A stretch of DNA of 35,176 nt from Candidatus Methylomirabilis sp. (GCA_041498975.1 JBGQJI010000006.1:1-35176); one strand, 5' to 3'; shown: positions 1,861-30,313, numbered from the stretch's first letter. The notes: a model not told the origin generated them from the sequence alone. Made by a program: numbers and translations.

Positions 1861-1957
1861 CGCGCCGCAATCTCCCCGGCTTGCTGGAAAGTCAAGGCGG
1901 GAGAATGTAAGTCCGGTTGCAGGTCACCGAACAGATCCGCGTCCCAGCTTCGAGAAG

Positions 1958-2043
1958 CCTGTCCTGAGCGATGTCGAAGGGCTTGCCCTGAGCCATGTCG
2001 AAACGGGCCTGCCCTGAGCCTGGTGGAAGGGCTCAGGACGAAC
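1958..2043. repeat. Tandem REP-like units (3 x ~24 bp, CCTGyCCTGAGCnnnGTCGAAGGG)
   Basis: Three adjacent imperfect copies; the same unit recurs at ~22074-22146 and inside the 18.6/19.8 kb elements. Confidence 0.75.
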
Positions 2044-2133
2044 GGTTCTCCGATGCGTTCTGAGATACCTGCCACAATCATCGCGAATGGGTCGAAGGGC
2101 CGCCAACGGGTTCCTCGGAAAACAGTGATGCCC

Positions 2134-3078
2134 ATGAGAACTATCTTGCCGAACTGGCCGGAGGCGATCGGCGTCAGGACGCAGCATCTGCGACAGGTCC
2201 TGGTGGGGTGTGGCCTGCTCTTCGCCGTGGCGCTCTCAGGATGCGCGATCCTCGACCTCTTTCCGTCGAAGCGGTCCGACGCGCCGGCCGGGTCGGACCA
2301 GGAGTTGATAAGCCGTGCCGAGGCGGCCATGGCCCGAAAGAAATACGATGAGGGGCGCAAGGACCTGCAGCGCCTGATCAACCAATTTCCCGAAAGCGAA
2401 TTGGTCCCGACGGCCCGTCTGAACATCGGCCGCTCCTACTTCAACGAGAAGAGGTACGACGAGGCGCGCGCCGAGTACCAGCGATTTATCGAGCTGTTCC
2501 CTCAACACGAGCGGGTTGACGAAGCGCGGTACTACATGGGACTATCCTTCTTCCGCCAGATGGAAAAGGCGGACCGCGATCAGACGCTGTCAAAGAAGGC
2601 GACCGCGGAGTTCCAGACCCTGGTCAGCGAATTTCGCGATTCCCAGTACGCGGCCGACGCGCGGGCCAAAGTGGCAGAGTGCCGCCGACTGCTCGCCCAG
2701 AACGAGCTCTATGTCGGCAGATTCTACTTTGACCGTGGGGCCTATGGCGCCGCCATCAAGCGGTTCGAGACGATTCTGAAGGAGTACGCCGGCTCCGAAT
2801 ACGACGACCAGGCCCTCTACTATCTCGGAGAGTCGCTTTGGGAGCTCGAGCAGAAGGGGCCCGCCAGGGCCGCTTTCGAGCGCCTCATCTCCCAGTTCCC
2901 GAACTCCGACCTGGGTCCGCTGGCAGCGAAGCGGATCGGGGTGGCCCTTGCTCCGAACCCGCGGCGCAAACAGAGGCCCGGTTTCTTCAGCACTGCGCTC
3001 ACCACGACGACCGACACCGTATCAGAGCTGAAGGACGCGATCCTGGACAGTGACCTCTGGCGGACCTGGGTCCCGTAG
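2134..3078 (+). CDS. bamD: Outer membrane protein assembly lipoprotein BamD
   Basis: Lipobox LSGC, TPR repeats, DRDQ motif, LAQNELYVGRFY...GAYGAAIKRF. Start uncertain (ATG at 2128 or 2134). Confidence 0.88.
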   Translation: MRTILPNWPEAIGVRTQHLRQVLVGCGLLFAVALSGCAILDLFPSKRSDAPAGSDQELISRAEAAMARKKYDEGRKDLQRLINQFPESELVPTARLNIGRSYFNEKRYDEARAEYQRFIELFPQHERVDEARYYMGLSFFRQMEKADRDQTLSKKATAEFQTLVSEFRDSQYAADARAKVAECRRLLAQNELYVGRFYFDRGAYGAAIKRFETILKEYAGSEYDDQALYYLGESLWELEQKGPARAAFERLISQFPNSDLGPLAAKRIGVALAPNPRRKQRPGFFSTALTTTTDTVSELKDAILDSDLWRTWVP

Positions 3079-3108
3079 CCGGCCAAAGAGCTCGGCCGGG
3101 GTCGCGGC

Positions 3109-4113
3109 GTGACCATGGTCAAGCGGTTTCCTGCTCAGCCCGGGAGCGCACCTGCAGCCTTGTCTCGAATCCCGGAGCGCAGGCCCGTGGAGCGGGCGCC
3201 GTCCCTCGGTCACGAGACCCGCGCCCTGCTTCGCCAGTACCACCTGCTGCCGAAAAGAGGCCTCGGACAAAGCTTCCTCATCGCGCCGACCATTCGTAAC
3301 CTGATCCTTCATGCGGCAGAGGTGGGCCCGGAGGACCTGGTGGTGGAGATCGGCCCCGGCACTGGCGTCCTGACCGAAGGCCTGGCCGAGAAAGCGGGCT
3401 GGTTGGTGGCGATCGAACGGGACGCCGGGCTGCATCGATTGCTTGTCGATCGGTTCGGACATCACCCCAGGCTGTCGCTGATCTGCGCCGACGCCCTCTC
3501 CTTCGACTACTCGACCGTTCTCGCTGAGATGTTCCCGGGACACAGACGCGCCAAGCTGGTCTCAAACCTCCCCTATTCAGTGGCCACTCCCCTGATCCTT
3601 CGACTGATCCGGCTGCAACGCTGCTTTACTTTCCTCCTGGTGATGGTGCAGCGCGAGGTTGCGAACCGGCTTCTGGCCGCCCCGGGAGGGAAGGACTACA
3701 GCGCCTTGACGCTCCGCTGCCGCTATGAGGCGGACGCGCGCGCGGTAGCCCAGGTGTCAAGGACGGTGTTCTATCCCAGGCCCGCGGTCGATTCTACCCT
3801 GGTTCGCCTGGACCTGCTCCCCACACCCAGGGTGTCGGTCCGATCCCCTGATCTGCTGTTTCGCGTCGTGCGGGCTGCCTTCGGGCAGCGAAGAAAGACC
3901 CTTCGCAACGCCTTGCTGGGCGGCGGCATCCCGGCGAACTCGGCACCCCTCGACCGGGCATTAGCGGCCGCGGGCATCGACCCGAAGCGCCGTGGAGAAA
4001 CTTTGACCCTCGAAGAATTCGCCAGCTTGGCCGACCATCTGCATGCGACGCACATCGTCCCCCCCCTCCAGGATGCTCCGGAGGGAGAAGATGCATCATA
4101 CGGTCAAGTGTGA
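3109..4113 (+). CDS. rsmA: 16S rRNA m6,2A1518/1519 dimethyltransferase (KsgA)
   Basis: KRGLGQSFL, VVEIGPGTG SAM motif, NLPY, MVQREVA, FYPRPAVDS, FGQRRKTLRN, RGETLTLEEF. Start uncertain. Confidence 0.95.
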   Translation: MTMVKRFPAQPGSAPAALSRIPERRPVERAPSLGHETRALLRQYHLLPKRGLGQSFLIAPTIRNLILHAAEVGPEDLVVEIGPGTGVLTEGLAEKAGWLVAIERDAGLHRLLVDRFGHHPRLSLICADALSFDYSTVLAEMFPGHRRAKLVSNLPYSVATPLILRLIRLQRCFTFLLVMVQREVANRLLAAPGGKDYSALTLRCRYEADARAVAQVSRTVFYPRPAVDSTLVRLDLLPTPRVSVRSPDLLFRVVRAAFGQRRKTLRNALLGGGIPANSAPLDRALAAAGIDPKRRGETLTLEEFASLADHLHATHIVPPLQDAPEGEDASYGQV

Positions 4114-4134
4114 GGCGATTGAGGCAGACGCTCG

Positions 4135-5166
4135 ATGAAGATCTCGGCTATCGGCGAAGTTGGTCTCATCGACCGGATCAGGAGAATTCTGCCACGGGCG
4201 AGCAATGCCCTTCTCGGGATCGGCGACGACTGCGCCGCCCTGCGACCGTCGTCAGGCAGAGATCTTCTGTTGACCAGCGACCTGCTCGTTGATCAGGTGG
4301 ATTTCACCCAGCAGACCATCACCCCCTTTCGCCTTGGCCGGAAGGCCATGGGCGTGAATCTCAGCGACATTGCCGCCATGGGCGGGTTGCCGCGTGCGGC
4401 GCTCATCACGCTGGCGCTTCCACCCGACACGGAGATCGACTTCGTAGACGAACTCTATCGGGGGCTCCAGGAGGAAGGGGCGCGACACGCCGTCGAGATC
4501 CTTGGCGGCGACCTATCCGCCTCGTCCACCCTCATGATCGGCGTGACGCTGGCTGGCGAGGTGGAGCCGGGGAGGGCTGTCACCCGGTCCGGGGCAAAAC
4601 CGGGGGAGCGGATCTGGGTCACGGGCCGCCTGGGTGCATCCGCGGCAGGCTTGGCGGCGTTGAGGGCTGGCTTTCGGCTCCGCGACAATCAGGTCGAGGC
4701 GCCTTCTGAAGTCCCTGCCCACCTGATGGAGGCGATCCGCCAGGCCATCGAACGACATTGCTGCCCCATCCCCAGGGTCCGTGAGGGACGAGCTATCGCG
4801 GAGGCTGGGGTCGCATCGGCGATGATCGACCTGAGCGACGGGCTCGCGTCGGACCTGCGACACCTCTGCCGCGAGAGCGGGGTCTCGGCAACGATCAGGG
4901 AGCATCTGATCCCCGTCGATCCGCTGGCGTCGGCCATCGGACGGCATCTCGGCAAAGACCCGCTGGCAATGGCGCTCGAGGGTGGAGAGGACTTCGAGCT
5001 TCTCTTCACCTCTTCTTCCACGCCTGGCACGATCCTCGCGCTTTTCTCCGATGGGGTCGGGGTAACCGAGGTCGGCGAAGTCACGGAACAGGGACAGGGA
5101 TGCTTGCTCGAGCGCTCAGACGGGGCAGGAGTTCCCCTCATCGGTGGGTACGATCACTTCCGGTGA
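4135..5166 (+). CDS. thiL: Thiamine-monophosphate kinase
   Basis: GEVGLID, GIGDDCA, NLSDIAAMGG, GGD, MIDLSDGLASDL, GGEDFELLF, GYDHF. Confidence 0.96.
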   Translation: MKISAIGEVGLIDRIRRILPRASNALLGIGDDCAALRPSSGRDLLLTSDLLVDQVDFTQQTITPFRLGRKAMGVNLSDIAAMGGLPRAALITLALPPDTEIDFVDELYRGLQEEGARHAVEILGGDLSASSTLMIGVTLAGEVEPGRAVTRSGAKPGERIWVTGRLGASAAGLAALRAGFRLRDNQVEAPSEVPAHLMEAIRQAIERHCCPIPRVREGRAIAEAGVASAMIDLSDGLASDLRHLCRESGVSATIREHLIPVDPLASAIGRHLGKDPLAMALEGGEDFELLFTSSSTPGTILALFSDGVGVTEVGEVTEQGQGCLLERSDGAGVPLIGGYDHFR

Positions 5167-18618: not shown

Positions 18619-18766
18619 CGTCATTGCGAGGGAGCGGCGCGACCCCTTCGACACTACTCAGGGCAGGCTCCGCAATCTCAACAGGGTTCTAGGTTCCAAG
18701 TGCCGAGTTCCAAGTTCTAAGTAACGTGGAACCTGGAACGGCGAAGCTCAGTCGCTCGCAATGACA
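18619..18766 (+). repeat. 148-bp REP/MITE-like element, left arm of an inverted pair
   Basis: Reverse complement of 19683-19830 with 3 mismatches; GTCATTGCGAG...CTCGCAATGAC ends. Confidence 0.92.
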
Positions 18767-18790: not shown

Positions 18791-19642
18791 TTAGTGTCCT
18801 ATCATGTCGCGGAGTGTCTTCTTTGCGAAACCGGGCGGGGGCTGGAACTCGGCGTCCGGGATCGCTCGGGTCTCCGCCTTAACGACCTCGATCGTCACTT
18901 GGCCTCCGGCCCGGTGGACCGTCCGAACCGGGTATCCCTCGCCCGCCAGCTTCCAGGCCGGATCGTCTGGGCGGAACCCATGTCGCCCCTGTGCACCTCC
19001 GCACCGCGGGGCCATCTTGGCCATTTCGGCCGAGAACCGCTCGAGCTTTTTGAGGTCCAGCTCTCGCCAGGCGGCCAAGGTCTTGGCAAGCCACATCTCC
19101 GACTCCAGTTTCCCGTCGATCAGCATATCGTACCGGACAGCCTGGTATCCCGCGATTGTGGCCTGTTGGCCCGTCTTCTCCACCTCGACCTTCGGCTCAC
19201 GACAGTCCTCTGGTGTCGGCGCGCTCTTGGGCATGTGGGAGCGCATCATCTCCTCCATCATCTTGCGCTGCTCGGCCGGCATATCTTTCATGTTCTCCTG
19301 CATCTGCTTCATCGCCTTCGCCATCTGTTCCGACGCCGCGTCCATCACGCCCTGCATCATCTGCCCGAACTCTTGCACTGTAGAGGCGACGTATTGCCCC
19401 TTCTTGTAATCAACCTGAGTGATGGTCTCGGCGTTCAGGTTCAGAATGAAGGCGTGGAGCGGTTGCCCATCCGTCCCTAACATGAGCATCTTCATCTGGT
19501 TGGTCTGAAGCATCACCTGCTGTTTGGCGCCCTCGCCTCCACCCTTCACCACCTGATCGATAACCCATCCCGCTCTGGCGGGGACGGGCCAGAGGATTGT
19601 GCTCGCGAGGATCGTGCCTGCAATTGCATGAGAGAGCAACAT
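18791..19642 (-). CDS. Secreted DUF4412-like protein
   Basis: RBS AAAGGAGG, signal peptide ending ARA-G, Met-rich helical insert, KTGQQATIAGY and IPDAEFQPPPGF motifs. Confidence 0.8.
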   Translation of the reverse strand: MLLSHAIAGTILASTILWPVPARAGWVIDQVVKGGGEGAKQQVMLQTNQMKMLMLGTDGQPLHAFILNLNAETITQVDYKKGQYVASTVQEFGQMMQGVMDAASEQMAKAMKQMQENMKDMPAEQRKMMEEMMRSHMPKSAPTPEDCREPKVEVEKTGQQATIAGYQAVRYDMLIDGKLESEMWLAKTLAAWRELDLKKLERFSAEMAKMAPRCGGAQGRHGFRPDDPAWKLAGEGYPVRTVHRAGGQVTIEVVKAETRAIPDAEFQPPPGFAKKTLRDMIGH

Positions 19643-19682
19643 GCCGAAACCTCCTTTCAACGGGTTATTGGATAACTTGGGC

Positions 19683-19830
19683 TGTCATTGCGAGCGACCA
19701 AGCTTCGCTGTTCCAGGTTCCACGTTACTTAGAACTTGGAACTCGGCACTTGGAACCTAGAACCCTGTTGAGATTGCGGAGCCTGCCCTGAGTAGTGTCG
19801 AAGGGGTCGCGCCGCTCCCTCGCAATGACG
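19683..19830 (-). repeat. 148-bp REP/MITE-like element, right arm of an inverted pair (overlaps polB 3' end)
   Basis: Inverted copy of 18619-18766. Confidence 0.92.
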
Positions 19831-22039
19831 GGCACTCCAGGATCAGCACTTTCAATCGCGCATAATCGTAGCCAAAGAACCACAACACCGATTCTGCGGC
19901 CTTCAGCAACAGCTCGGTGTACTTCTCGACATCGTAGCCAAGGCTGCCGTCGTAGAGGGCATACGCTTTCGCCTTCGAGACCTTGTCGTTGGCCCTGGAG
20001 TCCACGATCACGAGTTGGATCTCCTCTCCGGGAGAAAGATGGACGCCTCTGCTTGCAAGGTCCTTCGCGGCTTCCGAGAGGAGCGTATCGGTCTTGTATT
20101 CCATTGGCTCCTTGGAGAGCTGCCTGGTGATCGCCAGCTCTGCCAGCGGCACGCTGCCGCTCCGAAGCTCATCGACTTTTGCCCTCAGGTCATCGAGCAG
20201 GTCGGGGACACGCGCCTGGCACTCTTCATAGGTCCCTGTCTTCGAGAGCGCCGCAAGCATCGCTCGTTGCGCGCTCCTCACAAATCCCGGCGTGTCCGAG
20301 CGTCTGACCTCCAGGCCCCGGACCTTGATCGTGCCGTTCAAGAAGCGGCCGAAGTAACGGTTGGGAACGGGCGCCTTCGGCGACACCCTCGACGGCAGAA
20401 ACGCGATCCAATTGTACATCCCCTCGACGAGGATGGGAAGCTCGGTCTGCCGCGAGATGTCGGCAGCAAGCCGCTCGTAGTCCTGCAGCGTCGCGCCCGG
20501 CTTCTGCAGCCACATCGAATCGACGATCGCGTGGATGAGCGAGTACCCTGCCGCCTCCGCGATCTCCTTGGCGACCAGCAGTTTCTCGCGCGCATAGGCG
20601 GTGACCGCCTCGTGGCCTTCAAGCCGTCCGAAGCGCGCGTTCCGGTACCCCTGGTAGCCGAATGAGACGAGGCCAAGCCACTTCAGCGCGGACTGTCGCT
20701 TGTCATACAGCTCGCGCTGCTCCGCCGTGATGGCCTGTTTCATCAGCGTCTTGTAGATGCTCCGCCGCCGCAGCACCGGCTCCAGCGTCCGGGCCACCAG
20801 ACCCCGTCGCTTCGTGCAGAGGTTGTGACCGATCTCCGGGACCCTGTTCTCGGGACAGCAGGCGCACCCAACGGTCTCCTGTGAGATGTTGTACTTCGCC
20901 ATGATGCTGGGAAACATCGAGCTGAAATCCAGCTCGCAGACCTGCTCGTACAACCCGATGCGCGGCTGGAAGACCAGGCCCCCCTTGTCGATGAGCAGCA
21001 TCTGATTCCCGGTCTTGAACTCCTCCGGCAATCGCTTGCGCCAGGGGATCAGGTAGCCGTCGCGGAAGGCCAAGTCGAGCTGCATCGAGGAGACGCCCGT
21101 GCCGGGAGAGGTTCGCGCGCAGCGCTGTACCGGCAGCTTCGTGACCCGGGCGAGCTCGATCAGGCCGTCCAGACCGGTCTCGTCAACGGCGAACGAGTTC
21201 GCGACATCCAGGTGCCAGCGGCCGTGTAGGATCTGGGCACCCGCCCGATAGACGATCTTGCCATAGGTGAAGAAGCTCTTGGCCTTCCGGCTTTTGATCC
21301 CCGCCACGCTGTCCCTGTTGAGGGCAAGCTCTACGCCGTAAACGTCCGCCAGCCGCCGCAGCCTGGGAATGATGTACGAATCGCCGTACCGCGAGACGAT
21401 GACATCGGGGTCGTGAGTGATCAGCAAGGCGTTCAGGCTTTGCAGGAACTCCTCCCCCTCCTCCTCGAACACGAACTCGCGCTCATCGACAGACGCGACC
21501 AGCCGAGTGGTCCTGCTGTGGTTCGGATTGGCATCCTGCTCCATCCGCAGTTGAAGAAAGCGAAGCGGCGGGACGAGGTAGTGGATCTCCCATGGCGAGT
21601 CCAGGAGCTGGATCTCCCTGAGCCGCAAGCCCTCATCGTAGGCCAGCTCGCACTGCGCCAGGGGGAACAATCCCTTCTCGTAGAAATAGAGTTGCGGCAG
21701 CAGGATGTCGCAGTTGTAGAAGGTGATCTCCGGATTGAAACGGTGGGCGGCTTGAACGAGGGCGGAGAACCTGTCGAGCCTCGGCGTGCTGACTCGCAGG
21801 ACGGGGATAAAGCTGTTCGACAGGAGTTCCCTGCGCTCCGTCCACTCCGTCGTGATCGGCAGGCCCTGGCGCGACAGGTAGGACGCGCACTGCTTCAGCG
21901 CCGCGTGGGGGCCCCCCAGATAGAATGACGCCCAGTACGGATCAACCAGGCGGAGGCACCCCTGCTCGGTCTTGAGCCAGAGCACCATCCCGTCCCTGGA
22001 CGGATAGACGTCAAACAGCCAGCCCTTCTGTGCGCGCAA
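19757..22039 (-). CDS. Family B DNA polymerase of PolB2 type (degenerate motifs B and C)
   Basis: KGGLVFQP; motif A ELDFSSMFPSIM; motif B KWLGLVSFGY; motif C HAIVDS in place of YGDTDS; NRYFG..KVRGLEVRRSD; TTG start. Confidence 0.9.
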   Translation of the reverse strand: MRAQKGWLFDVYPSRDGMVLWLKTEQGCLRLVDPYWASFYLGGPHAALKQCASYLSRQGLPITTEWTERRELLSNSFIPVLRVSTPRLDRFSALVQAAHRFNPEITFYNCDILLPQLYFYEKGLFPLAQCELAYDEGLRLREIQLLDSPWEIHYLVPPLRFLQLRMEQDANPNHSRTTRLVASVDEREFVFEEEGEEFLQSLNALLITHDPDVIVSRYGDSYIIPRLRRLADVYGVELALNRDSVAGIKSRKAKSFFTYGKIVYRAGAQILHGRWHLDVANSFAVDETGLDGLIELARVTKLPVQRCARTSPGTGVSSMQLDLAFRDGYLIPWRKRLPEEFKTGNQMLLIDKGGLVFQPRIGLYEQVCELDFSSMFPSIMAKYNISQETVGCACCPENRVPEIGHNLCTKRRGLVARTLEPVLRRRSIYKTLMKQAITAEQRELYDKRQSALKWLGLVSFGYQGYRNARFGRLEGHEAVTAYAREKLLVAKEIAEAAGYSLIHAIVDSMWLQKPGATLQDYERLAADISRQTELPILVEGMYNWIAFLPSRVSPKAPVPNRYFGRFLNGTIKVRGLEVRRSDTPGFVRSAQRAMLAALSKTGTYEECQARVPDLLDDLRAKVDELRSGSVPLAELAITRQLSKEPMEYKTDTLLSEAAKDLASRGVHLSPGEEIQLVIVDSRANDKVSKAKAYALYDGSLGYDVEKYTELLLKAAESVLWFFGYDYARLKVLILECPSLRGSGATPSTLLRAGSAISTGF

Positions 22040-22054
22040 CTTTCTCCTCTAGGA
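22004..22054 (-). repeat. 51-bp direct repeat copy 1 (small-gene/polB junction)
   Basis: 47/51 identical to 23595-23645. Confidence 0.9.
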
Positions 22055-22187
22055 AGAGGACCGACATCCCTCGCCTGTCCTGAACTCAGTCGAAGCCTGT
22101 CCTGAGCTGAGTCGAAGGGCCTGCGCTGAGCCTTGTCGAAGCGGGCTTGTTATTGCGAGGCCGACGGAGTCGGCCGAAGCAATCTTG

Positions 22188-22378
22188 AGTTATACTTTTG
22201 ACTAATACGATGAGCCAAAAAAACAGCCCGACAGCCAAAGAGCGCCACCACGCTCTGAAGCGGCCCAGACGCGCCGGAATGCTCCAGCCCTTGGCCCAGA
22301 ACCTGCCAGCCACCGCAAGCCGCACGCAGGACCGGCATACCCAGGGCATGATAACCATCATCCTGAAGCCGCATAACG
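22188..22378 (-). promoter_or_regulatory. ~190-bp repeated promoter module copy 1, upstream of polB2
   Basis: About 90% identical by hand alignment to 24123-24316; minus strand reads T-tract, TGGCTC-17-TATAAC with TATTAGTCA 4 bp before the -10. Confidence 0.8.
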
Positions 22379-22449
22379 TTGCCGTTCACTCGGCCGAGGG
22401 GCGGCGCGGAGCGCCGCTCCCGAGGATCGGGTGCAACGGCTTGTTATGT
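22371..22449 (-). other. attC site
   Basis: Minus strand: ACATAAC-AAGCC-GTTGCACC...AGTGAAC-GGCAAC-GTTATGC with GC-rich central hairpin. Confidence 0.88.
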
Positions 22450-22635
22450 GTCTGATTCACGATCCTGGAGGTGCTTCTTAAGTTGGTCAATGTCAAGAGC
22501 CGGCCGTGTGCTGTGGATCATGGCGTGGCAGTTCGGGCAAACCGGAACTAGATCATTCACCGGGTCCACTACGTACACACCTTTGATTTCGGACAATGGC
22601 ACAAGGTGGTGGACGTGGATGTAGTTCTTCCCATA
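22444..22635 (-). pseudogene. C-terminal remnant of an HNH endonuclease (McrA-like)
   Basis: Translated by hand: YGKNYIHVHHLVPLSEIKGVYVVDPVNDLVPVCPNCHAMIHSTRPALDIDQLKKHLQDRESDT*, with the stop inside attC R''; no start codon. Confidence 0.8.
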
Positions 22636-23018
22636 GAGAATGGAAACGGCGAAAAAAACATGAAAACTGCTACAGCAGCGAACGCGATGACGATACTTGT
22701 GACTGGTAATACGAGTGGCGTATCTACAATCGACTTACCGATATAAAGAAGCAGAAACCATAAAATGGGATGCCCATCATATTGGGTCAGTCCGTAAAGG
22801 TCTAGCGGTGAAATGGCAGCGCGTGCTAACGATAATGCCCGAACTTCGTCACGCCCGAATTCATGCCGTGTCGTAGTGAAGATGACTCCAGTGAGCCATA
22901 TGCCAAGAATGGCGACTGTGACGATTGCAGACTTTGCTCCGGCGGACGAGGTATTAGATCGGGCCAGTGCTAGACACCGTCCCACAAAAGCTTTTGGTGA
23001 TATCGTCAAGCGGTTCAT
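22636..23018 (-). pseudogene. N-terminal remnant of a polytopic membrane protein (GT-C-like), first cassette after attI
   Basis: TM helix then HEFGRDE...YDGHPILWFLLL; lower GC; fused out of frame to the HNH remnant. Confidence 0.55.
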
Positions 23019-23056
23019 CGTTATTTCAGAATAATCTGGCCAATAGAGTATCGAGC

Positions 23057-23142
23057 GGCTAACTATTGATGCTGAAGCATTTCCCGGTCCTCACATTTCC
23101 CACGACTGCGGCGATTCTCTCGGGTTTTCGAAACCTTGTCAA
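23057..23142 (-). promoter_or_regulatory. Candidate Pc promoter and attI crossover downstream of intI
   Basis: Minus strand TTGACA (23137-23142)-17 bp-GAGAAT (23114-23119), then GTTAGCC at 23057-23063 ~40 bp ahead of the cassette ORF, with no attC hairpin. Confidence 0.5.
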
Positions 23143-23192
23143 GGTTCTCCGGGCCCCGCCATGGCCGATAAATACTGACCAGCATAATCCCA

Positions 23193-23579
23193 TTATGGCT
23201 GCAGCGAATTGGGCGCCACGGTCGATGCGTCTGCCGGACTACGGACGCCTCTCCCACCCCGATTCACAACATGGGTGTAAATCATGGTCGTGGTGACACC
23301 CCCGTGACCCAAGAGCTCTTGGACGGTCTGGATGTCATAGCCATCCTCGAGCAGGTCAGTGGTAAAGGTATGCCGCAATGTGTGGCGGCTCGCTGGTTTC
23401 ACAATCCCGGCCTTGAGCCTAACCTCTTTCATCGCCCGCTGGAGAACCGATTCGTGTGGGTGGTGACGGCGCCTTTTTCGCGCGAGCCGGTCGGTGTAGT
23501 GGTGTGAGGCTGGAAAGACCCACTGTCATCCCCATTCTTTGCCTGCGTTTGGATATTTGCGTTCACGGGCATTGGGCAG
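23193..23579 (-). pseudogene. intI: Integron integrase remnant (C-terminal part, internal stop)
   Basis: LPNARERKYPNAGKEWG*QWVFPAS...[15 protein letters not shown] (IntI-specific insertion), [29 protein letters not shown]-terminus missing. Confidence 0.92.
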
Positions 23580-23594
23580 GCTTACGCGGCCGAA

Positions 23595-23645
23595 ATAGAC
23601 GTCAAACAGCCAGCCCGTCTGCGCGCGCAACTTTCTGCTCCAGGA
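23595..23645 (-). repeat. 51-bp direct repeat copy 2 (vestigial polB start overlapping the small gene's end)
   Basis: Encodes LRAQTGWLFDVY, against LRAQKGWLFDVY at the polB start. Confidence 0.9.
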
Positions 23646-23871
23646 CTTTGAGTTCCTTCTTCAGCTCGATCAGCATGCAGAGCAGCATCGTCTCGAAGGG
23701 CTTGGGATTGCTGGCATAGGCGCCGGCCTGCATCTGGGTCTTCGGCGCGATGAAGAGCTCGTCGAAGACCTCCTGGTCGTCTTTGCGCAGCGCCCGCCGA
23801 AACCGCTTCCACTCGTCCTTCTCGAGCTCCTGCAGGATCAGCATGTTATAGGTCGGCAGCGTCCTCCCCAT
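23602..23871 (-). CDS. Small helical protein of the PolB2-associated family (arCOG07300-like)
   Basis: MGRTLPTY...EWKRFRRALRKDDQEVFDELF...NPKPFETMLLCMLIE; RBS GAGAGG. Confidence 0.8.
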   Translation of the reverse strand: MGRTLPTYNMLILQELEKDEWKRFRRALRKDDQEVFDELFIAPKTQMQAGAYASNPKPFETMLLCMLIELKKELKVLEQKVARADGLAV

Positions 23872-23909
23872 GGTTTACACCTCTCTCCCGTACGCACTCA
23901 CTAATGTGA

Positions 23910-24093
23910 TGTCATTGCGAGGCCGACAAGGTCGGCTGAAGCAATCTCGCGACTCGGGGCAGGCTGCGCAATCTACCCGCCCAACGGATCACAGGCGAGA
24001 TTGCTTCGCTTCGCTCGCAATGACACCGCGTGTCGGATTGCCGCGCTCCCTTCGACGAGGCTCGGGGCAGGCCTTCCAGTCGCTCGCAATGAC
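23910..24093. repeat. Cluster of GTCATTGCGAG/CTCGCAATGAC REP-like palindromes
   Basis: GTCATTGCGAG..GAAGCAATCT...AGATTGCTTCG..CTCGCAATGAC and a further copy; related units at ~22150 and ~30197. Confidence 0.75.
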
Positions 24094-24122
24094 GATGTCG
24101 CGACATGCAATGTGTTTGCGAT

Positions 24123-24316
24123 AGTTATACTGTTGACTAATACCATGAGCCAAAAAAAGGGCTCGAAGGCCAAAGCGCGCCACCACGCTCTGAAGCGGCT
24201 CAGAGGCGCCGGAATGTTCCAGCCCTTGGCCCAGAGAACCTGCCAGCCACCGCAAGCAGCACGCAGAACCGGCATACTCAGGGCATGATACCCATCATCC
24301 CTGAAGCCGCGTAACG
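24123..24316 (-). promoter_or_regulatory. ~190-bp repeated promoter module copy 2, upstream of the small gene
   Basis: Direct repeat of 22188-22378; TATTAGTCA-4 bp-TATAAC. Confidence 0.8.
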
Positions 24317-24345
24317 CGATGCCGCTCAGCGACGGCCCGTTAGGC
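24309..24345 (-). other. Internally deleted attC-like site
   Basis: Minus strand GCCTAAC-GGGCC-GT..GCTGAGC-GGCATCGC-GTTACGC; R'' matches the DUF418 cassette start (TAGGCAG). Confidence 0.6.
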
Positions 24346-24439
24346 AGCGTCTTCTCGCGAGTCTTCCTGCCGCCTCGGCATCCTGAATAGCTGGCAGGGC
24401 AGCGCGACCTTAAGCGGACCGCGAGATAGCCCCAAGTCT

Positions 24440-25735
24440 TCAGACGACGGCTGCCGGCCCGCTTGAGCCGCTCGATTGTGCGAGCCGCATCGGCTGGAAC
24501 CGGGCGTAGGTCAGTGTCCGCCACAGCCACTCGACCGGTCCGAAGCGGAAGCGACCGAGCCACCAGCGGCTCCAGACGATCTCCGCGCCGAAAAGCGCCA
24601 GCGTGAACAGGATCCCGATGGCAGATCCGAATTTCTGGTAGAGACCCAACCCGTAACCAAAAAAGACCGATGCGCAGAGGAACCACTGCATGAGGTAGTT
24701 GGTGAGCGCCATTCGCCCCGGCCAAGCCAGCAGGCCCAGTCTTGTTCTCCATCGCCGGCTCTGCGCCATGAGGAGAAGCATCGCGGAGGCATAGCCCAAA
24801 CTGACCGCAAAGCCGCCGACAAGCACCAGAGAGCGCTGGAGGATCCAGCCGGCTGGAGGCGCGACTTCCTCGACCGACAGCATCACAAAGAGGGTTCTCC
24901 CGACCAAACCGATTGCGAAACCCGACCAGAGCACTCGCCGGAGGAACGGCAGATGGGCCGATGTGCTGTCGAAGATTCCGCGGTGAACGGCATAGAGCCC
25001 GATCAAGAACATCGTGAACACGTTGGCGAGCTCGGCTGCATAGAAGTTCCAACCCGAGAAGGTCGCCACGAATTTGTCCCACCGAAGGCCGACAAGCTCC
25101 GTGTAGCTGCCCGTTCTTTCTATCCGACGAGCGCGCCGCACACGCTCCCGGCGCGCCTCAGTCTCGTCGCGCTCCAGCGCACGCACCGTCTCTGCGTCGG
25201 CACCCTGGAGCAAAGCGGCTTGGCGCGTCTCGACGAGGTGGCGCGTCACGCCCGGCGCCGTCGACGCAACGACGAGGCTCAGGGCGGCGCAGATAAGTAT
25301 CGTCCTCGTGGACCGGTGCCGAAAGAGCATCAACGGGTAGCCCATGAGTGCGTAACGAATCAGGATCGGCCGATCCATGATGAAGAATTGCTGCATGACG
25401 CCAATACCCAGCAGCACGCCGAGTCGGCGCGCGTAGATCGGAATGAACGGCGCGCCGCGCGCGCGGGCGCGAGACACCTGGATGGCAAAGCCGACCCCGA
25501 ACAAAAGCGAAAACAGCGGATAGAACTTGTTTGTGGCGAAGAGCTCGATCAGCCAGAGCGCCGTCCTGTCGGCACTCGAATGACGGCCAAGAAAGGCATT
25601 CATGTCGACGAGGATGATTCCGAAGAGCGCGAAACCGCGCAGGATATCCACCGTCTCGATCCGCTCGCCTGGCTCAACGGGCGCAAGCTCGCCTCGGCAT
25701 GACAACTCCCCTGCGACTCCGCTGGTAGTGCACAT
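24440..25735 (-). CDS. DUF418 (YeiB-like) membrane protein, gene cassette
   Basis: RIETVDILRGFALFGI, KFYPLFSLLFGVGF, GRMALTNYLMQ, FRFGPVEWLWR. Confidence 0.9.
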   Translation of the reverse strand: MCTTSGVAGELSCRGELAPVEPGERIETVDILRGFALFGIILVDMNAFLGRHSSADRTALWLIELFATNKFYPLFSLLFGVGFAIQVSRARARGAPFIPIYARRLGVLLGIGVMQQFFIMDRPILIRYALMGYPLMLFRHRSTRTILICAALSLVVASTAPGVTRHLVETRQAALLQGADAETVRALERDETEARRERVRRARRIERTGSYTELVGLRWDKFVATFSGWNFYAAELANVFTMFLIGLYAVHRGIFDSTSAHLPFLRRVLWSGFAIGLVGRTLFVMLSVEEVAPPAGWILQRSLVLVGGFAVSLGYASAMLLLMAQSRRWRTRLGLLAWPGRMALTNYLMQWFLCASVFFGYGLGLYQKFGSAIGILFTLALFGAEIVWSRWWLGRFRFGPVEWLWRTLTYARFQPMRLAQSSGSSGPAAVV

Positions 25736-25819
25736 TTATCTATCCTCTCCGTGCACGGTTTCGGGAATGACGGACTCGGATCCCCCGCAGCGGGTGTGAC
25801 TGCGCTCTGATCGACCTCT

Positions 25820-25909
25820 GCCTAGCTTGGCGCTGAGCGGCCGCCGGCCGAGCACGCCCGGAAAAGACGAGCCGCTTCTCCGCCGGTCCGCTCCAGCGCC
25901 TGGTTGGGT
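25820..25909 (-). other. attC site (R' mutated GTT>GCT)
   Basis: ACCCAAC-CAGGC-GCTGGAGC...GCTCAGC-GCCAA-GCTAGGC. Confidence 0.8.
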
Positions 25910-25913
25910 TGCG

Positions 25914-26201
25914 CTATTTCTCCTCGCCCGGCTGCGGCGTGTCTCGGTTGAGCCTCTTCTGATTCTCGGCAGCCCACTCCGCCTGCGCCCGTTCCGTTCG
26001 CTCGATGATCTCCTGGCACTTCTCCGCCGTCAGGGACATTTCGCTGCACCGTTGCTGGTATGCAGGGTCGTTCGGGCGCTTGCAGCAGAAATACTCCGGC
26101 AAGGGCAAGAACGCCGTGCTGCTTGCCGGGACGGCGACCACAGCGAGCGCCGCCATGGCCGCGACGAAACGCACCGTGAGACAGTAAAGTCTCGAACGCA
26201 T
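25914..26201 (-). CDS. Small secreted Cys-containing hypothetical protein, gene cassette
   Basis: RBS GAAGGAGG, signal peptide, CC...C...C; lies between two attC sites. Confidence 0.7.
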   Translation of the reverse strand: MRSRLYCLTVRFVAAMAALAVVAVPASSTAFLPLPEYFCCKRPNDPAYQQRCSEMSLTAEKCQEIIERTERAQAEWAAENQKRLNRDTPQPGEEK

Positions 26202-26317
26202 CAGGGCACCTCCTTCCCCGTTGGGGCCACGCTGAATGCGAGCGTCGTCGGCGAGTAGCTCCGGCGAGGCCCTTGCGCTGCACTCATGTGTGCAGCACGC
26301 TGACCCCGTCAAGCGCA

Positions 26318-26380
26318 ACCTAACGTGTGCCGTTAACGGGCGCCCGCTTCCGGGCGTCCCGGTTGAACAACCGGTTAGAG
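26318..26380 (-). other. attC site
   Basis: CTCTAAC-CGGTT-GTTCAACC...GTTAAC-GGCACAC-GTTAGGT. Confidence 0.88.
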
Positions 26381-26381
26381 C

Positions 26382-26702
26382 TCATGATGCACCTTGATTC
26401 CCACCCATACGTAGCCGGGAATAGACCACATACCGAATTATGCCGCCGACGAGAAGACAAGCCGGGAATATCACCAGTGAGTAGATTGCTGACACCACGA
26501 GCCACCACGCCGAATCGGGACCGGATGCCATCTCTTTGCGCAAATAAATGGTAGTCACAATGGACAATGCTACAGCGCATCCGACAACAAGAGCATCAAA
26601 TATGCGGATGCTCTTAGCTCCATCTCTGCCAGGGCGGAAGCGAAAATACACCCAGAGTGACACGCCCAGAACTGGAAGGAGGATTGCAAACGCAACAATC
26701 AT
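26382..26702 (-). CDS. Small 3-TM hypothetical protein, gene cassette
   Basis: ATG just after GTTAGAGCTCAG; the cassette start GTTAGAG complements its own R'' CTCTAAC. Confidence 0.75.
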   Translation of the reverse strand: MIVAFAILLPVLGVSLWVYFRFRPGRDGAKSIRIFDALVVGCAVALSIVTTIYLRKEMASGPDSAWWLVVSAIYSLVIFPACLLVGGIIRYVVYSRLRMGGNQGAS

Positions 26703-26707
26703 CTGAG

Positions 26708-26772
26708 CTCTAACGTTCCGCAACAGTTGCAGGTCGCGAAAGCGGACGGCCGCCTGCGTACGGCTGTTAGGC
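26708..26772 (-). other. attC site (imperfect)
   Basis: GCCTAAC...GCAGG...CCTGCAAC...GTTAGAG. Confidence 0.7.
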
Positions 26773-26787
26773 GGCCGTCGGAGCGGC

Positions 26788-27240
26788 TCAAAGCCAACGC
26801 CTGACCTTGCTCTTGTAGTCACGGTATGCATCGCCGAAGATTCGCTCCAGTGTTTTCTCTTCATGAGGGATAAAGACGATACTCAGGACGATGAAGAAAG
26901 CGATTGGTGCAAGAAACATAGGTAGCGAACCAACCCAGACGGCAACTCCAGTCAGCATGAGGATGATTCCTAAATACATCGGATTTCGCGAGAAACGGAA
27001 CGGACCGTCGGCGACTAAAGTACTCGGCTCGTCCGTGGGACGAATAGGTGTTTTCTTCTCCTGGAACAGCTTCCACGCCCAGATCATGACCGCAAATCCT
27101 GCAATAATGCCTATTGAACCCAAGAGCGGCATGGAAAAACGACGCCCGATGTTTTCAGGTACAAGCAGATGAAGGCCGAAACTCACAGCAAGAAGGGCAA
27201 AGGCGATGCTAGGCGGTTTCAGTTCTACAAGGTTCATCAT
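26788..27240 (-). CDS. Isoprenylcysteine carboxyl methyltransferase/PEMT family protein, gene cassette
   Basis: LVADGPFRFSRNPMYLG, IPHEEKTLERIFGDAYRDYKSKVRRWL. Confidence 0.9.
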   Translation of the reverse strand: MMNLVELKPPSIAFALLAVSFGLHLLVPENIGRRFSMPLLGSIGIIAGFAVMIWAWKLFQEKKTPIRPTDEPSTLVADGPFRFSRNPMYLGIILMLTGVAVWVGSLPMFLAPIAFFIVLSIVFIPHEEKTLERIFGDAYRDYKSKVRRWL

Positions 27241-27254
27241 TGGCAGGCCAATTC

Positions 27255-27312
27255 GCCTAAGGCTACGCTTCAGCCGCGCGGGTACCGCGTCGGCTGCAAG
27301 CGCTTGTTCGGC
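27255..27312 (-). other. attC site (R' mutated GTT>CTT)
   Basis: GCCGAAC-AAGCG-CTTGCAGC...GCTGAAG-CGTAGC-CTTAGGC. Confidence 0.85.
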
Positions 27313-27483
27313 TTACCTGTTTCTTTGTTCATCGATATGCCTCAACTCGGAAAGCACCCCATGGCCCGCGTAGAACAAATTAGTTGGGCATTTGTCATAT
27401 TCATCCCTGCATCCGACGGCATCACATGCGATAGCCGAAAAAGGGTGATACCGAATCATAAACCCCCTGAAGCTCATCCTTCG

Positions 27484-27876
27484 TCATTCCCGAATAATCG
27501 AGCCGACGATAAGACCGCCCAATATGGCCTCCACCAAAGAACCTAAAAACCAGACCAGCGCCATGTGATATGGAATGGGCATCACGGAGTAACTTCCGTA
27601 GCCCATCGATACTCCCGTACCCAGCCCAAACCAAAGACCATATTTCAGGCCAGTCGCTACCCCTCTTTGTGAGAAAAACTGCGAATAGATACAGACAAAG
27701 GCGAGGGCGGCGATCAACACCGAAAGGTGCAAGACGGACATCTTCATCTCGCCCATTGGCCGCCACAGCGACGCCGTCGCCTCGTAGGTGGAACGAAGGA
27801 CCACTCCGTGAATGACGAAATCCACCGCGGACCACGCGACGAACACAGCAAGGACCGAGAGGATCACCTTCTTCAT
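27484..27876 (-). CDS. 4-TM hypothetical membrane protein (DUF1761-like)
   Basis: RBS GGGAGGAG before MKKVIL; four hydrophobic helices. Confidence 0.75.
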   Translation of the reverse strand: MKKVILSVLAVFVAWSAVDFVIHGVVLRSTYEATASLWRPMGEMKMSVLHLSVLIAALAFVCIYSQFFSQRGVATGLKYGLWFGLGTGVSMGYGSYSVMPIPYHMALVWFLGSLVEAILGGLIVGSIIRE

Positions 27877-28013
27877 CACTGCTCCTCCCTTCTCGAAGAG
27901 CGCTGCCATCGACACGTCATCGTCTGATCATGATCACCTTCCGGAGTCCACTCCTGGCTCGCTCGGGGTAGATTACCAGCACGGCCGCGCCGCGATGGGC
28001 CAACAGTGGTCAC

Positions 28014-28766
28014 CTAGTCGTACAGCAACACGCCGCCCTCCGGTGACGGGAAGCCATCGTCCCCAGCGAAGGCCCACAGGTACGCCTTGCTAAGGGTCCT
28101 GCCGTTCGTTTCCCCGGAGAAGCTGTGGTCGCAGTGAGGCACGCCCCGTGCGTACACGGCTCTGGCGCTCTTGGCCAGCGACGGCATCATCATGGCCAGG
28201 ATGGCCGCTGCCGGGTCCTGCTCTCCGTACGCCACGTACACCTCACCTGTGTAGCGCCGCACGCCGCTCAGAAAGAACCAATCCGTGCTATCGTAGGCAG
28301 AGACCAGAAGGACCTTGTTGATCGCAGCGAACAGCGGCGCCACTGCAACCACTACAGAACCTCCGGCGGAGAAGCCGGCCAGATACACTTCGGGTTCCCT
28401 GCCGCCACACAGCCGCATGGCCTCCTTCAGGCAGTGTTCCACGAGCGCAGCCATACTTTCAACAAAGATGAGGTTCCAGCTCGCATCCCGGTACGAGTAG
28501 GGCTCATTCGGGTACACGAACTGGGCGTCCGGCCAGGGCGGGTTGAAACTCACCAGCGTGGCGATGCCACGGTCTTGCAGGTGCTCCCCAAGGCGCACGT
28601 ACCGATCTCTGGCCCCCTCCTTGACTTCACCCGCTCCGGGCGCCTGAATGATGAGCTTGCCCGATCTGGTCGGGAACGCGATGAAGGGCACCTCGTAGGG
28701 AACAGTTTGCCCGTGGTAGCCCGTCGTCGTAAGCTGGAGGGAACCCGCCTCTATTGCCACGTTCAC
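28014..28766 (-). CDS. Alpha/beta-hydrolase fold protein
   Basis: Nucleophile elbow GFSAG, YGEQD, CDHSF. Confidence 0.75.
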   Translation of the reverse strand: MNVAIEAGSLQLTTTGYHGQTVPYEVPFIAFPTRSGKLIIQAPGAGEVKEGARDRYVRLGEHLQDRGIATLVSFNPPWPDAQFVYPNEPYSYRDASWNLIFVESMAALVEHCLKEAMRLCGGREPEVYLAGFSAGGSVVVAVAPLFAAINKVLLVSAYDSTDWFFLSGVRRYTGEVYVAYGEQDPAAAILAMMMPSLAKSARAVYARGVPHCDHSFSGETNGRTLSKAYLWAFAGDDGFPSPEGGVLLYD

Positions 28767-28892
28767 CGCCTCACCAAGTCCAAAGACACCTTGGCCTGCT
28801 CATCCCGGATTGAACGGCCCCGTGGGAGAAGAAGGCCGCCGGAGCTGTCGAGCTATCCTCCGGCAAGCCGCCCTGAAAGTCAATCCGCGTGT

Positions 28893-29567
28893 CTAATCCT
28901 TGCTTGTAGAGCTTCTCCTGAATGTATTCCTGAGCGGGACTCCTGCACCTGGGAACGTGTCGGCCGCCCTGACCGGCTTTTCCAAGTAGAGCGTGGAGGC
29001 GTCCAGCTTGATCACTTTATCGGCCATGGCCATCAAGACGTCCAGCAGCCTGTCCCGGTCGGGCAGTCGCACGGCCGGAGCGGGGCAAACCACCAGCACG
29101 AGCGAGCCGGCATCGGCGAGCGCGCGCAGATGGGCCGTCGCTTTCCTGAAAACCCTCCAGGCCTCCCGAAGCTCGACGTCTTCATCGTAGAGATTGTCCA
29201 GAAAGCCAGAGGCGACCAGGATCCGGGAGGCGTAGGTCTTCAAGGCTTGGGAGATGCGCTCGGTGATGAGGGCTTCGAGTTGATGAACGGTGAAGGTCCG
29301 CGAGATATGGATGCGGTCGAGCAGCTCTTCGGGTGGCCTGTTAAGTCGTGTCGCAACCTCAGCGATCAGAAAGGGATTGAAGGCGTTGGCAGAGTCGATG
29401 AAGACGACGTGCTGTCCGGAGGCCAGCAGCGAGGCGATCGCCCGCAGCGAATAGGTGAGGACGGCCTGGCTGCCGTAGAGCAGGACGAGGCCGCCCTGAG
29501 CCCTCCAGCGGTTGAGGGAAAGGGTGAATTGGGAAAAGACAAGCCTGGGAGGCAGTACGCGTTCCAC
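28893..29567 (-). CDS. RecA/RadA-like protein with degenerate Walker A (ImuA-like role inferred)
   Basis: LVLLYGSQAV at the P-loop position (no GKT), VVFIDSANAFNP, LLDRIHISRTFTVHQL; starts 2 nt after the lexA stop. Confidence 0.82.
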   Translation of the reverse strand: MERVLPPRLVFSQFTLSLNRWRAQGGLVLLYGSQAVLTYSLRAIASLLASGQHVVFIDSANAFNPFLIAEVATRLNRPPEELLDRIHISRTFTVHQLEALITERISQALKTYASRILVASGFLDNLYDEDVELREAWRVFRKATAHLRALADAGSLVLVVCPAPAVRLPDRDRLLDVLMAMADKVIKLDASTLYLEKPVRAADTFPGAGVPLRNTFRRSSTSKD

Positions 29568-29569
29568 GA

Positions 29570-30163
29570 TTAAATCCTGCGAAAGACACCGATGACCTTC
29601 CCTAAGATCCTGAAGCGCTTGTCTTTCCCGATCCTGATGGGCGTGAAGTCCTCATTTTCAGGCTTGAGGATCACCGTCTTGCCGTCCATCTGGAAGCGCT
29701 TCACCGTGACCTCGTCATCGACCATCGCCACCACGATCTCGCCGGGGAGCGCTTCACGCTGCACCTTCACGAGCACGAGGTCGCCATCGAAGATGCGGGC
29801 GTCCCGCATGCTGTCACCCTGAACCCTCAGCAGGAAGGTCTCCCCGCCTCCGGTCCACTCCCGGGGGAGCGGGTAACTGGTCTCGATGTTCTCCTCGGAC
29901 AAGACCGGTTTGCCGGCGGCCACCTGACCGAGCAGCGGCGCCAGGGCAACCCGCTGTTCCTGACGCAGCTCGATGGCCCGCGACCGCTTGCGCCCGCGCG
30001 TGAGATACCCGGCCCGCTCGAGACGCTCAAGATGGTACTGGACCCCCCGGAGGTAGATCTTCAGATGCTGGGCGATTTCGCGCAGCGTCGGGGACGCGCC
30101 GTGCCTGGCCTTATAGTCAGCAATAAACTTGAGGATCTGCCGCTGCCGCTCCGTCAGTTCCAT
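29570..30163 (-). CDS. lexA: LexA repressor
   Basis: LTERQRQIL, PTLREIA, VAAG cleavage site, GDSM (Ser), VTVKR (Lys), ILGKVIG. Confidence 0.96.
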   Translation of the reverse strand: MELTERQRQILKFIADYKARHGASPTLREIAQHLKIYLRGVQYHLERLERAGYLTRGRKRSRAIELRQEQRVALAPLLGQVAAGKPVLSEENIETSYPLPREWTGGGETFLLRVQGDSMRDARIFDGDLVLVKVQREALPGEIVVAMVDDEVTVKRFQMDGKTVILKPENEDFTPIRIGKDKRFRILGKVIGVFRRI

Positions 30164-30262
30164 CGGATCCTCTTACCTCCATTCCCTCTTCACGCTGTCA
30201 TTGCGAGCCGCGGGCGCGGCAATCTCGCTCTTTGCCCCATTACGGAAGCGCCTACTACCAAT

Positions 30263-30291
30263 ATTATACATATGACTAATAAGTCAAGCAA
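30263..30291 (-). promoter_or_regulatory. lexA promoter with palindromic operator (candidate LexA box)
   Basis: Minus strand TTGCTT-17 bp-TATAAT; the spacer carries TGACT-tatt-AGTCA (30273-30286). Confidence 0.78.
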
Positions 30292-30313
30292 AAAAAACTT
30301 CATCGAGATTCGC

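Follow-up and report, generated by a model that had tools for sequence, protein, structure and literature searches.

The 35,176-nucleotide contig of Candidatus Methylomirabilis sp. analyzed here in full (GCA_041498975.1 JBGQJI010000006.1:1-35176; hereinafter, the window) corresponds to the entire contig C6 of a 2.68-Mb genome that is represented by 241 contigs and is 85% complete. Three promoters on its minus strand, namely those of lexA, of a gene encoding a small protein (PPB2) and of polB2, the gene for a family B DNA polymerase (PolB2), share an element that is probably the SOS operator of the LexA protein of Candidatus Methylomirabilis. We assign a probability of roughly 0.7 to this reading, in which the core of the operator would be the 16-bp imperfect dyad TTAGTC-N4-GTATA(A/G) rather than the palindrome TGACT-N4-AGTCA that was proposed in an initial annotation of this DNA. 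We read the predicted box as a new variant of the LexA box of the Gram-positive/cyanobacterial type. The positions of all features are given in Table 1.

The sequence TATTAGTCA has three matches in the window, against 0.04 expected by chance, and none of 100 shuffles reached three (chance estimates for the window consist of the expected count and 100 shuffles throughout); in the 2.68-Mb genome as a whole there are four matches. Each of the window copies follows a run of seven or eight T and is followed, 4 nt downstream, by TATAAT or TATAAC. All strings quoted for the three promoters in the initial annotation are present on the minus strand at the positions given there, and so is the T-tract beyond the -35 region, with T8 at lexA and T7 at both other promoters; across the genus, nearly every promoter with a box has such a tract, at an equal distance. 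The three sites of that annotation exist but represent only two independent ones because both "target" promoters lie within a duplicated segment (see below). Similarly, the fixed 4-bp spacing to the -10 hexamer holds, but the bases of the hexamer are also the right half of the box. By consensus reading, the box covers TATAAT/TATAAC, and a promoter scan additionally calls TTGACT-16-AATATT at the lexA promoter. When a weight matrix built from seven sites was run over the same genome, only the three window sites scored above 30 bits, the next best score being 22.7. The fourth genomic copy of TATTAGTCA (C30:10752), in which the right arm is replaced by GCGATT and which precedes a truncated gene end, was judged to be a remnant or a chance match, as was, in the latter sense, an AGTC-N4-GTAT lacking TTAG at position 22704, inside an open reading frame (ORF) of 149 aa. 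Weaker matrix matches (C58:10510, C86:7338, C56:4401) lack an SOS gene downstream.

For comparison, lexA was taken from 40 relatives and the upstream DNA was then read (in G025, three lexA-like matches were obtained, with E values from 7e-48 to 4e-36), whereas patterns were counted in 20 genomes of the genus, each against its reversed control. As a putative signature of autoregulation, the element TAGTC-N4-[G/A]TATA is present upstream of lexA in all 13 genus genomes for which upstream sequence is available, with G in 12 of them and A in G012; two of these sites are located farther upstream and were seen in other scans. The exact pattern TAGTCNNNNGTATAA (TAGTC-N4-GTATAA) has 26 matches in the 20 genomes compared to 6 for the control. 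These matches comprise 14 lexA promoters, four promoters of the cassette of the small gene and the polymerase (PolB2) gene (two in G000 and one each in G004 and G012), three promoters of the imuA-imuB pair, which encodes a RecA-like and a Y-family-polymerase-like protein, two promoters of integron-integrase genes (TIGR02249) and one of a DUF5131 gene, as well as one match of unknown nature and one probable chance match.

To avoid circularity, imuA was sought by protein homology, without use of the pattern. Eleven matches were obtained, two of which were dropped (contig ends), and TTAGTC-N4-GTATA[A/G/T] is found in all nine remaining regions upstream of imuA(-imuB-dnaE2). The box is also present in all three genus genomes that possess the 5′ end of the PolB2 cassette (G000, twice, G004 and G012); in G004, the same box-bearing promoter is located upstream of polB2. 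Across the homology-found sites as a whole (n = 26: 13 lexA, 9 imuA and 4 PolB2-cassette promoters), C-N4-G or C-N4-A is invariably present, with G in 25 cases. The promoters of integron-integrase-like genes in G010 and G008 contain this box, in agreement with the known control of integron integrases by LexA. In the complete genome G008 (C1:1094000-1100600), the order is box, lexA, DUF5131, box, imuA, imuB, dnaE2. The DUF5131 (phage Gp37/Gp68-like) gene, which in this genome lies between lexA and imuA-imuB-dnaE2, has a box of its own in G019 (C144), where it precedes imuA, and possibly belongs to this SOS regulon as well. Neither imuA nor imuB was found by tblastn in the 85% complete genome to which the window belongs, which possesses the PolB2 set in place of the ImuA-ImuB-DnaE2 set.

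The C-N4-G layout is common to the genus and to five sister families of the same order (f3 to f7). The lexA promoters of the genus read TTGAC[G/T]-TA-[G/T]TAGTC-N4-GTATAA; those of f5 read TTGACA-GG-CTATAC-N4-GTATAG in six of six cases (one of the six comes from an unpublished genome, G027, and the statement stands without it), those of f3 and f6 CCATAC-N4-GTAT[A/G]G, those of f7 CTCAAC-N4-GTTGAG (twice), and those of f4 GATAAC-N4-GTTATC (5/5). The left arm is separated from the -35 hexamer by 2 nt in the genus as well as in f5 and f6, by 1 nt in f3 and f7, and by 7 nt in f4, so that the place of the box agrees with that in Methylomirabilis within two bases in four families and is five bases further in f4. 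Because the sister families hold palindromes at or near the same place, the 4-bp spacing to the -10 hexamer that had been noticed at the window promoters can be equated with the N4 spacer of a C-N4-G box. The right arm GTATA of the genus is identical to that of f5 (ATAC-type), and the left arm alone differs, with AGTC for ATAC. The recognition helix of LexA varies between the groups in step with the box: GVQYHLERLE in Methylomirabilis, SVFDHLKALE in f5, f3 and f6, AVHDHLKALE in f7 and GAFRHVRALE in f4. The string KIYLRGVQYHL, which the initial annotation had singled out as an atypical recognition helix region, is found in the 197-aa LexA, and GVQYHLERLE is indeed unlike the helices of the sister families. 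The exact palindromes of the latter (TATAC-N4-GTATA in five f5 genomes; ATAAC-N4-GTTAT in five f4 genomes) match nearly only the lexA promoter and reveal no extra regulon members, in contrast to the Methylomirabilis box, which recurs at several operons. In f7, the lexA promoters contain two boxes in tandem, CTCAAC-N4-GTTGAG and CTCAAC-N4-GTTGTC, with a TATATT hexamer between them. A CTATAC-CCTG-GTATAC site at C48:10893 was rejected as not SOS-related: it is surrounded by GGGTATAGGG-type repeats, and the gene that follows encodes a 137-aa product that we take to be a glyoxalase-family (methylmalonyl-CoA epimerase-like) protein.

A tentative and, in our view, somewhat doubtful extension of these comparisons is that the operator of Methylomirabilis LexA is always asymmetric, with a newly evolved AGTC half and an ancestral GTAT half that is fused to the -10 hexamer, and that the specificity of LexA shifted several times within the order (TAAC, CAAC, ATAC, AGTC+ATAC) along with substitutions in the helix. 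If so, the order would provide a natural series for the study of repressor/site co-evolution, caught half-converted.

Several points weigh against the identification of the shared element as the LexA operator. LexA binding, repression and damage induction are predictions drawn from sequence, conservation, gene associations and the intact LexA. The dyad arms, TTAGTC and TTATAC, are complementary at 4 of the 6 positions, with the identical mismatch at every site, and such fixed asymmetry is unusual for a homodimer; the symmetric version, TAGTC-N4-GACTA, has no exact site in the 20 genomes (a recurring TAGTCATATGACCA that emerged from this search and was set aside falls within a long ORF, presumably mnmA, the start of which is of the PP-loop type, SGGVDS). 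The boxes of the sister families come from lexA promoters only, and the genomes of a single genus are non-independent samples. In the genome that includes the window, no box is present upstream of recA, nor did the matrix scan detect one upstream of the classic excision-repair genes. Furthermore, the right arm is inseparable from the -10 hexamer, and GTATAA could be kept as a promoter element only. Finally, outside the box, the sites share the T-tract and, in addition, CTTGAC at promoters of the lexA, integrase and DUF5131 type or GGCTCA at those of the imuA and polymerase type, and part of their likeness may stem from copied promoter modules rather than from independent selection.

The last two observations, along with the plain duplication that accounts for two of the window copies, favor the view that what is conserved is a strong promoter module (T-tract, -35, TAGTC spacer element, TATAAT), in which TAGTC is read by RNA polymerase, a sigma factor or a regulator other than LexA, and which acquired its SOS link via cassette copying. 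We consider this view unlikely because the element is limited to lexA, two translesion polymerase cassettes, integron integrases and the DUF5131 gene, a set that is typical of LexA regulons, because the flanking sequences of the imuA and polB2 promoters, beyond the ~40-bp module, show no relationship to each other, and because true palindromes occupy the corresponding place, or one near it, in the sister families. In addition, the conserved G of the homology-found sites is directly 5′ of TATAAT, a position that belongs to neither the standard -10 nor the extended -10 element.

Quite unlikely, too, is the possibility that LexA reads the same 20 bp in another manner, either as a direct repeat, GTAT-N9-GTAT, comparable to GTTC-N7-GTTC of Alphaproteobacteria, or as an outer inverted repeat, TATTA-N10-TAATA. 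Direct-repeat LexA motifs are known (PMC8565304), and GTATTAGTC-N4-GTATAA holds GTAT twice at polB2 and at most imuA sites, but the upstream GTAT is variable (TTAT, GTAG, ATAT, GGAT, GTCT, ATGT, TTGT, GCAT) whereas TAGTC never varies. The inverted repeat is perfect at the lexA site of the window, but its outer right arm is not kept at polB2 (TAACT) and at imuA sites (TAGTA, TATCA, TAGCA).

The original proposal, in which LexA would recognize a perfect TGACT-N4-AGTCA in the lexA promoter and imperfect sites, matching by half, in both target promoters, is very improbable: although the 5+5 palindrome is perfect at lexA in the window and recurs upstream of lexA in G002 and G005, the closest two relatives, its left arm is kept in 3 of the 13 orthologous lexA promoters (G000, G002, G005) and in none of the 13 non-lexA sites (0/9 imuA and 0/4 PolB2-cassette promoters), the pattern is not enriched across the 20 genus genomes (17 distinct sites versus 28 for the control), and its half-sites are oriented opposite to those of the C-N4-G boxes of the sister families. 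Elsewhere, the hexamer that contains the left arm is TTGACG (in most cases), TTGACA, TTGATT or CTCGAT, and the right arm is often AGTCT; given this AGTCA/AGTCT variation, there is therefore no compensating change for the lost left arm. Within the window, the palindrome with up to one mismatch has a single match against 0.66 expected, and 48 of the 100 shuffles contain at least one; because this count is at the chance level, the perfect palindrome is unremarkable by itself. Thus, the part of the initial annotation that endures is the assignment of the shared element to LexA, which is probably correct; its definition as a palindrome, and with it the imperfect sites at the two target promoters, had to be abandoned. 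The remark that the motif differs from CTGT-N8-ACAG, GAAC-N4-GTTC and GTTC-N7-GTTC applies to the redefined element as well.

Table 1. Promoter elements, genes and repeats of the window (positions counted from its first nucleotide)
Feature	Position	Strand	Description
lexA promoter	T8 30297-30290; TTGACT 30287-30282; TGACTTATTAGTCA 30286-30273; TATAAT 30268-30263	minus	tatg between TGACTTATTAGTCA and TATAAT
T8 tract of lexA promoter	30290..30297	minus	upstream of -35 region; UP-element-like
Proposed LexA operator, lexA promoter	30264..30279	minus	TTAGTC-ATAT-GTATAA
Extended imperfect dyad, lexA promoter	30262-30281		TATTAGTCATATGTATAATA
Earlier-proposed palindrome	30273..30286	minus	TGACTTATTAGTCA; left arm is part of the -35-like TTGACT (30287-30282)
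Small-gene (PPB2) promoter	24147-24124	minus	catggTATTAGTCAacagTATAAC; TTTTTTT directly before
Proposed LexA operator, PPB2 promoter	24125..24140	minus	TTAGTC-AACA-GTATAA(C); TTTTTTTGGCTCA just upstream
polB2 promoter	22212-22189	minus	catcgTATTAGTCAaaagTATAAC; TTTTTTT directly before
Proposed LexA operator, PolB2 promoter	22190..22205	minus	TTAGTC-AAAA-GTATAA(C); TTTTTTTGGCTCA just upstream
lexA	29570..30163	minus	197 aa; TIGR00498, 207 bits (cut-off 111); Pfam LexA_DNA_bind and Peptidase_S24
iRadA	28893..29567	minus	putatively inactive RadA/Rad51-like, 224 aa; directly downstream of lexA
PPB2	23602..23871	minus	small helical PolB2 partner, 89 aa; starts MGRTLPTYN
PolB2	19757..22039	minus	archaeal-type family B DNA polymerase, 760 aa; Pfam DNA_pol_B, E 1e-33
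Duplicated promoter segment	copy 1, 22188-22388; copy 2, 24123-24328	minus	89% identity over 206 nt
Duplicated fragment of polB2 start (~12 codons)	23595..23645	minus	92% identical to 22004-22054; overlaps PPB2 end
Tyrosine recombinase, C-terminal fragment	23193..23432	minus	Pfam Phage_integrase, E 5e-16, profile positions 115-168 of 172; between the promoter copies

By its sequence, LexA is intact: the winged helix-turn-helix and the S24 domain are present, and so are the Ala-Gly cleavage site, the Ser and the Lys. Solved LexA chains align with the entire protein (PDB 3k2z, E 8.5e-40), and its VAAG, GDSM and VKR pair with VAAG, GMSM and VKR, respectively, of 7b5g (see PMC3091678 for the roles of the cleavage-site, Ser and Lys residues). 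The iRadA protein shows weak family matches (Pfam Rad51, E 2.3e-5; RadA likewise weak), and no GxxGxGK[ST] was seen when its sequence was read by eye; the place of its gene agrees with that in the published lexA-iRadA-PPB2-PolB2 operon. Pfam and NCBIfam searches with PPB2 yielded no match; its homologues are encoded directly upstream of polB2 in G012, G036, G022, G030 and G020. PolB2 matches the NCBIfam type B polymerase model PRK05761 (E 7.5e-117), below the cut-off of that model. Family B polymerases carry the motif YGDTDS; at this place PolB2 reads HAIVDSMW, with one Asp kept, and at motif A it reads DFSSMFPS. This fits the "inactivated-looking" PolB2 of the literature.

Bacterial operons that combine an "inactivated" PolB2, a homologue of arCOG07300, an inactivated RadA and lexA have been described previously (Makarova, Krupovic and Koonin, 2014, PMC4104785), and the PolB2 mutasome has been defined as iRadA, PPB2 and PolB2, with the bacterial operon order iRadA-PPB2-PolB2, an enrichment of lexA in the vicinity and a PPB2 that begins with MGRT (Timinskas and Venclovas, 2025, PMC11791011). 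The window encodes the same three proteins near lexA, and because the MGRT start and, in relatives, the adjacency of PPB2 and polB2 and the proximity of lexA match the published operons, the gene set is the already published lexA-linked PolB2 mutasome. Synteny of polB2 with lexA is observed in five relatives. In four genomes (G036, G022, G026 and G020), the two genes are ~1.1-1.3 kb apart on the same strand, a gap the size of which suggests that it holds iRadA; the window and G012 are the only loci where the iRadA gene itself was read behind lexA.

Compared to the published operon, the window is particular in that the genes are divided among three units, each with a box-bearing promoter, PPB2 and PolB2 being located each behind its own copy of the duplicated box promoter. 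The order iRadA-PPB2-PolB2 is kept but interrupted: in minus-strand order, about 5 kb of unrelated genes separate the iRadA gene from the PPB2 gene, and lexA-iRadA is 6.8 kb away from polB2. Of the two duplicated copies, the upstream one has an intact PPB2 gene and only a stub of polB2, whereas the downstream one has an intact polB2 and a PPB2 gene reduced to its last ~5 codons. The duplication is real and not an assembly artefact because contigs from four independent sediment runs cover both copies, with no differences at the boxes, and because another species (G004:C192:1-3473) shares the duplicated layout, the ~1.5 kb between its copies being unrelated to the 1.2 kb found here.

Under the proposed regulatory scheme, a LexA dimer on the box would fill the spacer and cover the -10 hexamer (TATAAT/TATAAC) of a T-tract promoter, and the bound repressor would keep RNA polymerase off the promoter. 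Once DNA is damaged, LexA would cleave itself under stimulation by RecA and thereby vacate the promoters, and the three box-bearing ones of the window would then express the PolB2 translesion mutasome in three parts: the lexA promoter would provide LexA and iRadA, the second promoter PPB2 (followed by the dead polB2 start), and the duplicated copy of this promoter PolB2.

LexA motifs vary widely between lineages (PMC8565304), and the closest known counterparts of the predicted Methylomirabilis box appear to be the Bacillus subtilis (Gram-positive, Cheo) box, CGAAC-N4-GTTCG, and the cyanobacterial box, RGTACNNNDGTWCB / AGTACWNWTGTACT, which is pseudo-palindromic (PMC3091678). All these boxes have an inner C and G 4 nt apart and are located in the lexA promoter. 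The cyanobacterial sites are also imperfectly symmetric, and some of those at lexA end with GTATT, e.g., GGTACAAATGTATT (PMC3091678). The differences are in the arms, AGTC/GTAT in Methylomirabilis versus GAAC/GTTC in the Cheo box and GTAC/GTWC in cyanobacteria, and, unlike in these two types, the asymmetry of the Methylomirabilis box is fixed at every site seen and its right arm coincides with the -10 hexamer. The ImuA-ImuB-DnaE2 set, which is under SOS control in other bacteria (PMC8072749), is linked to LexA within the genus as well, where members such as G008 carry the same box before lexA and before imuA.

The available portions of the two PolB2 papers (PMC4104785, PMC11791011) name no operator sequence, and a literature search that did not extend to the supplements of these papers yielded no LexA-binding motif and no paper on LexA for Methylomirabilis or Methylomirabilota (NC10). 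The box described here supplies candidate operator sequences for bacterial PolB2 operons, the link of which to lexA rested on gene neighborhood alone, and the series of LexA motif changes within the order is open to simple gel-shift tests. We know of no genetic system for the nitrite-dependent methane oxidisers of Methylomirabilota; with the predicted SOS box, their DNA-damage regulon could be read directly from genomes. This regulon appears to be small and centered on mutagenesis, consisting of lexA and integron integrases plus the PolB2 mutasome, ImuA-ImuB-DnaE2 or both of these alternative translesion sets.

A few minor features of the window were noted in addition. Small divergent putative ORFs on the plus strand (22061-22211 and 24145-24288), which start with MSQK, adjoin the boxes. 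The one at 24145-24288 would encode an arginine-rich product of 47 aa that ends with ILRA, and a similar 47-aa ORF was read by eye in the upstream DNA of G004; the copy at 22211 differs in frame from the 24145-24288 copy after a 2-nt indel. Repetitive extragenic palindrome (REP)-like repeats (of the …CATTGCGAG…GAAGCAATC… type) are located at 23988-24074 and also at 22092-22185 and 23910-23947. In four sediment runs, one bin here has a summed contig depth of ~1800-5000, compared to ~15 for the neighboring bins, which indicates a very abundant repeat family. A scan of the whole window against Rfam identified a single tRNA and nothing else. Finally, a 148-nt inverted repeat with 98% complementarity (18619-18766 and 19683-19830) flanks a DUF4412 gene (18791-19660); one of its arms takes in the last ~25 codons of polB2, and a similar piece is found at C30:16590-16658.

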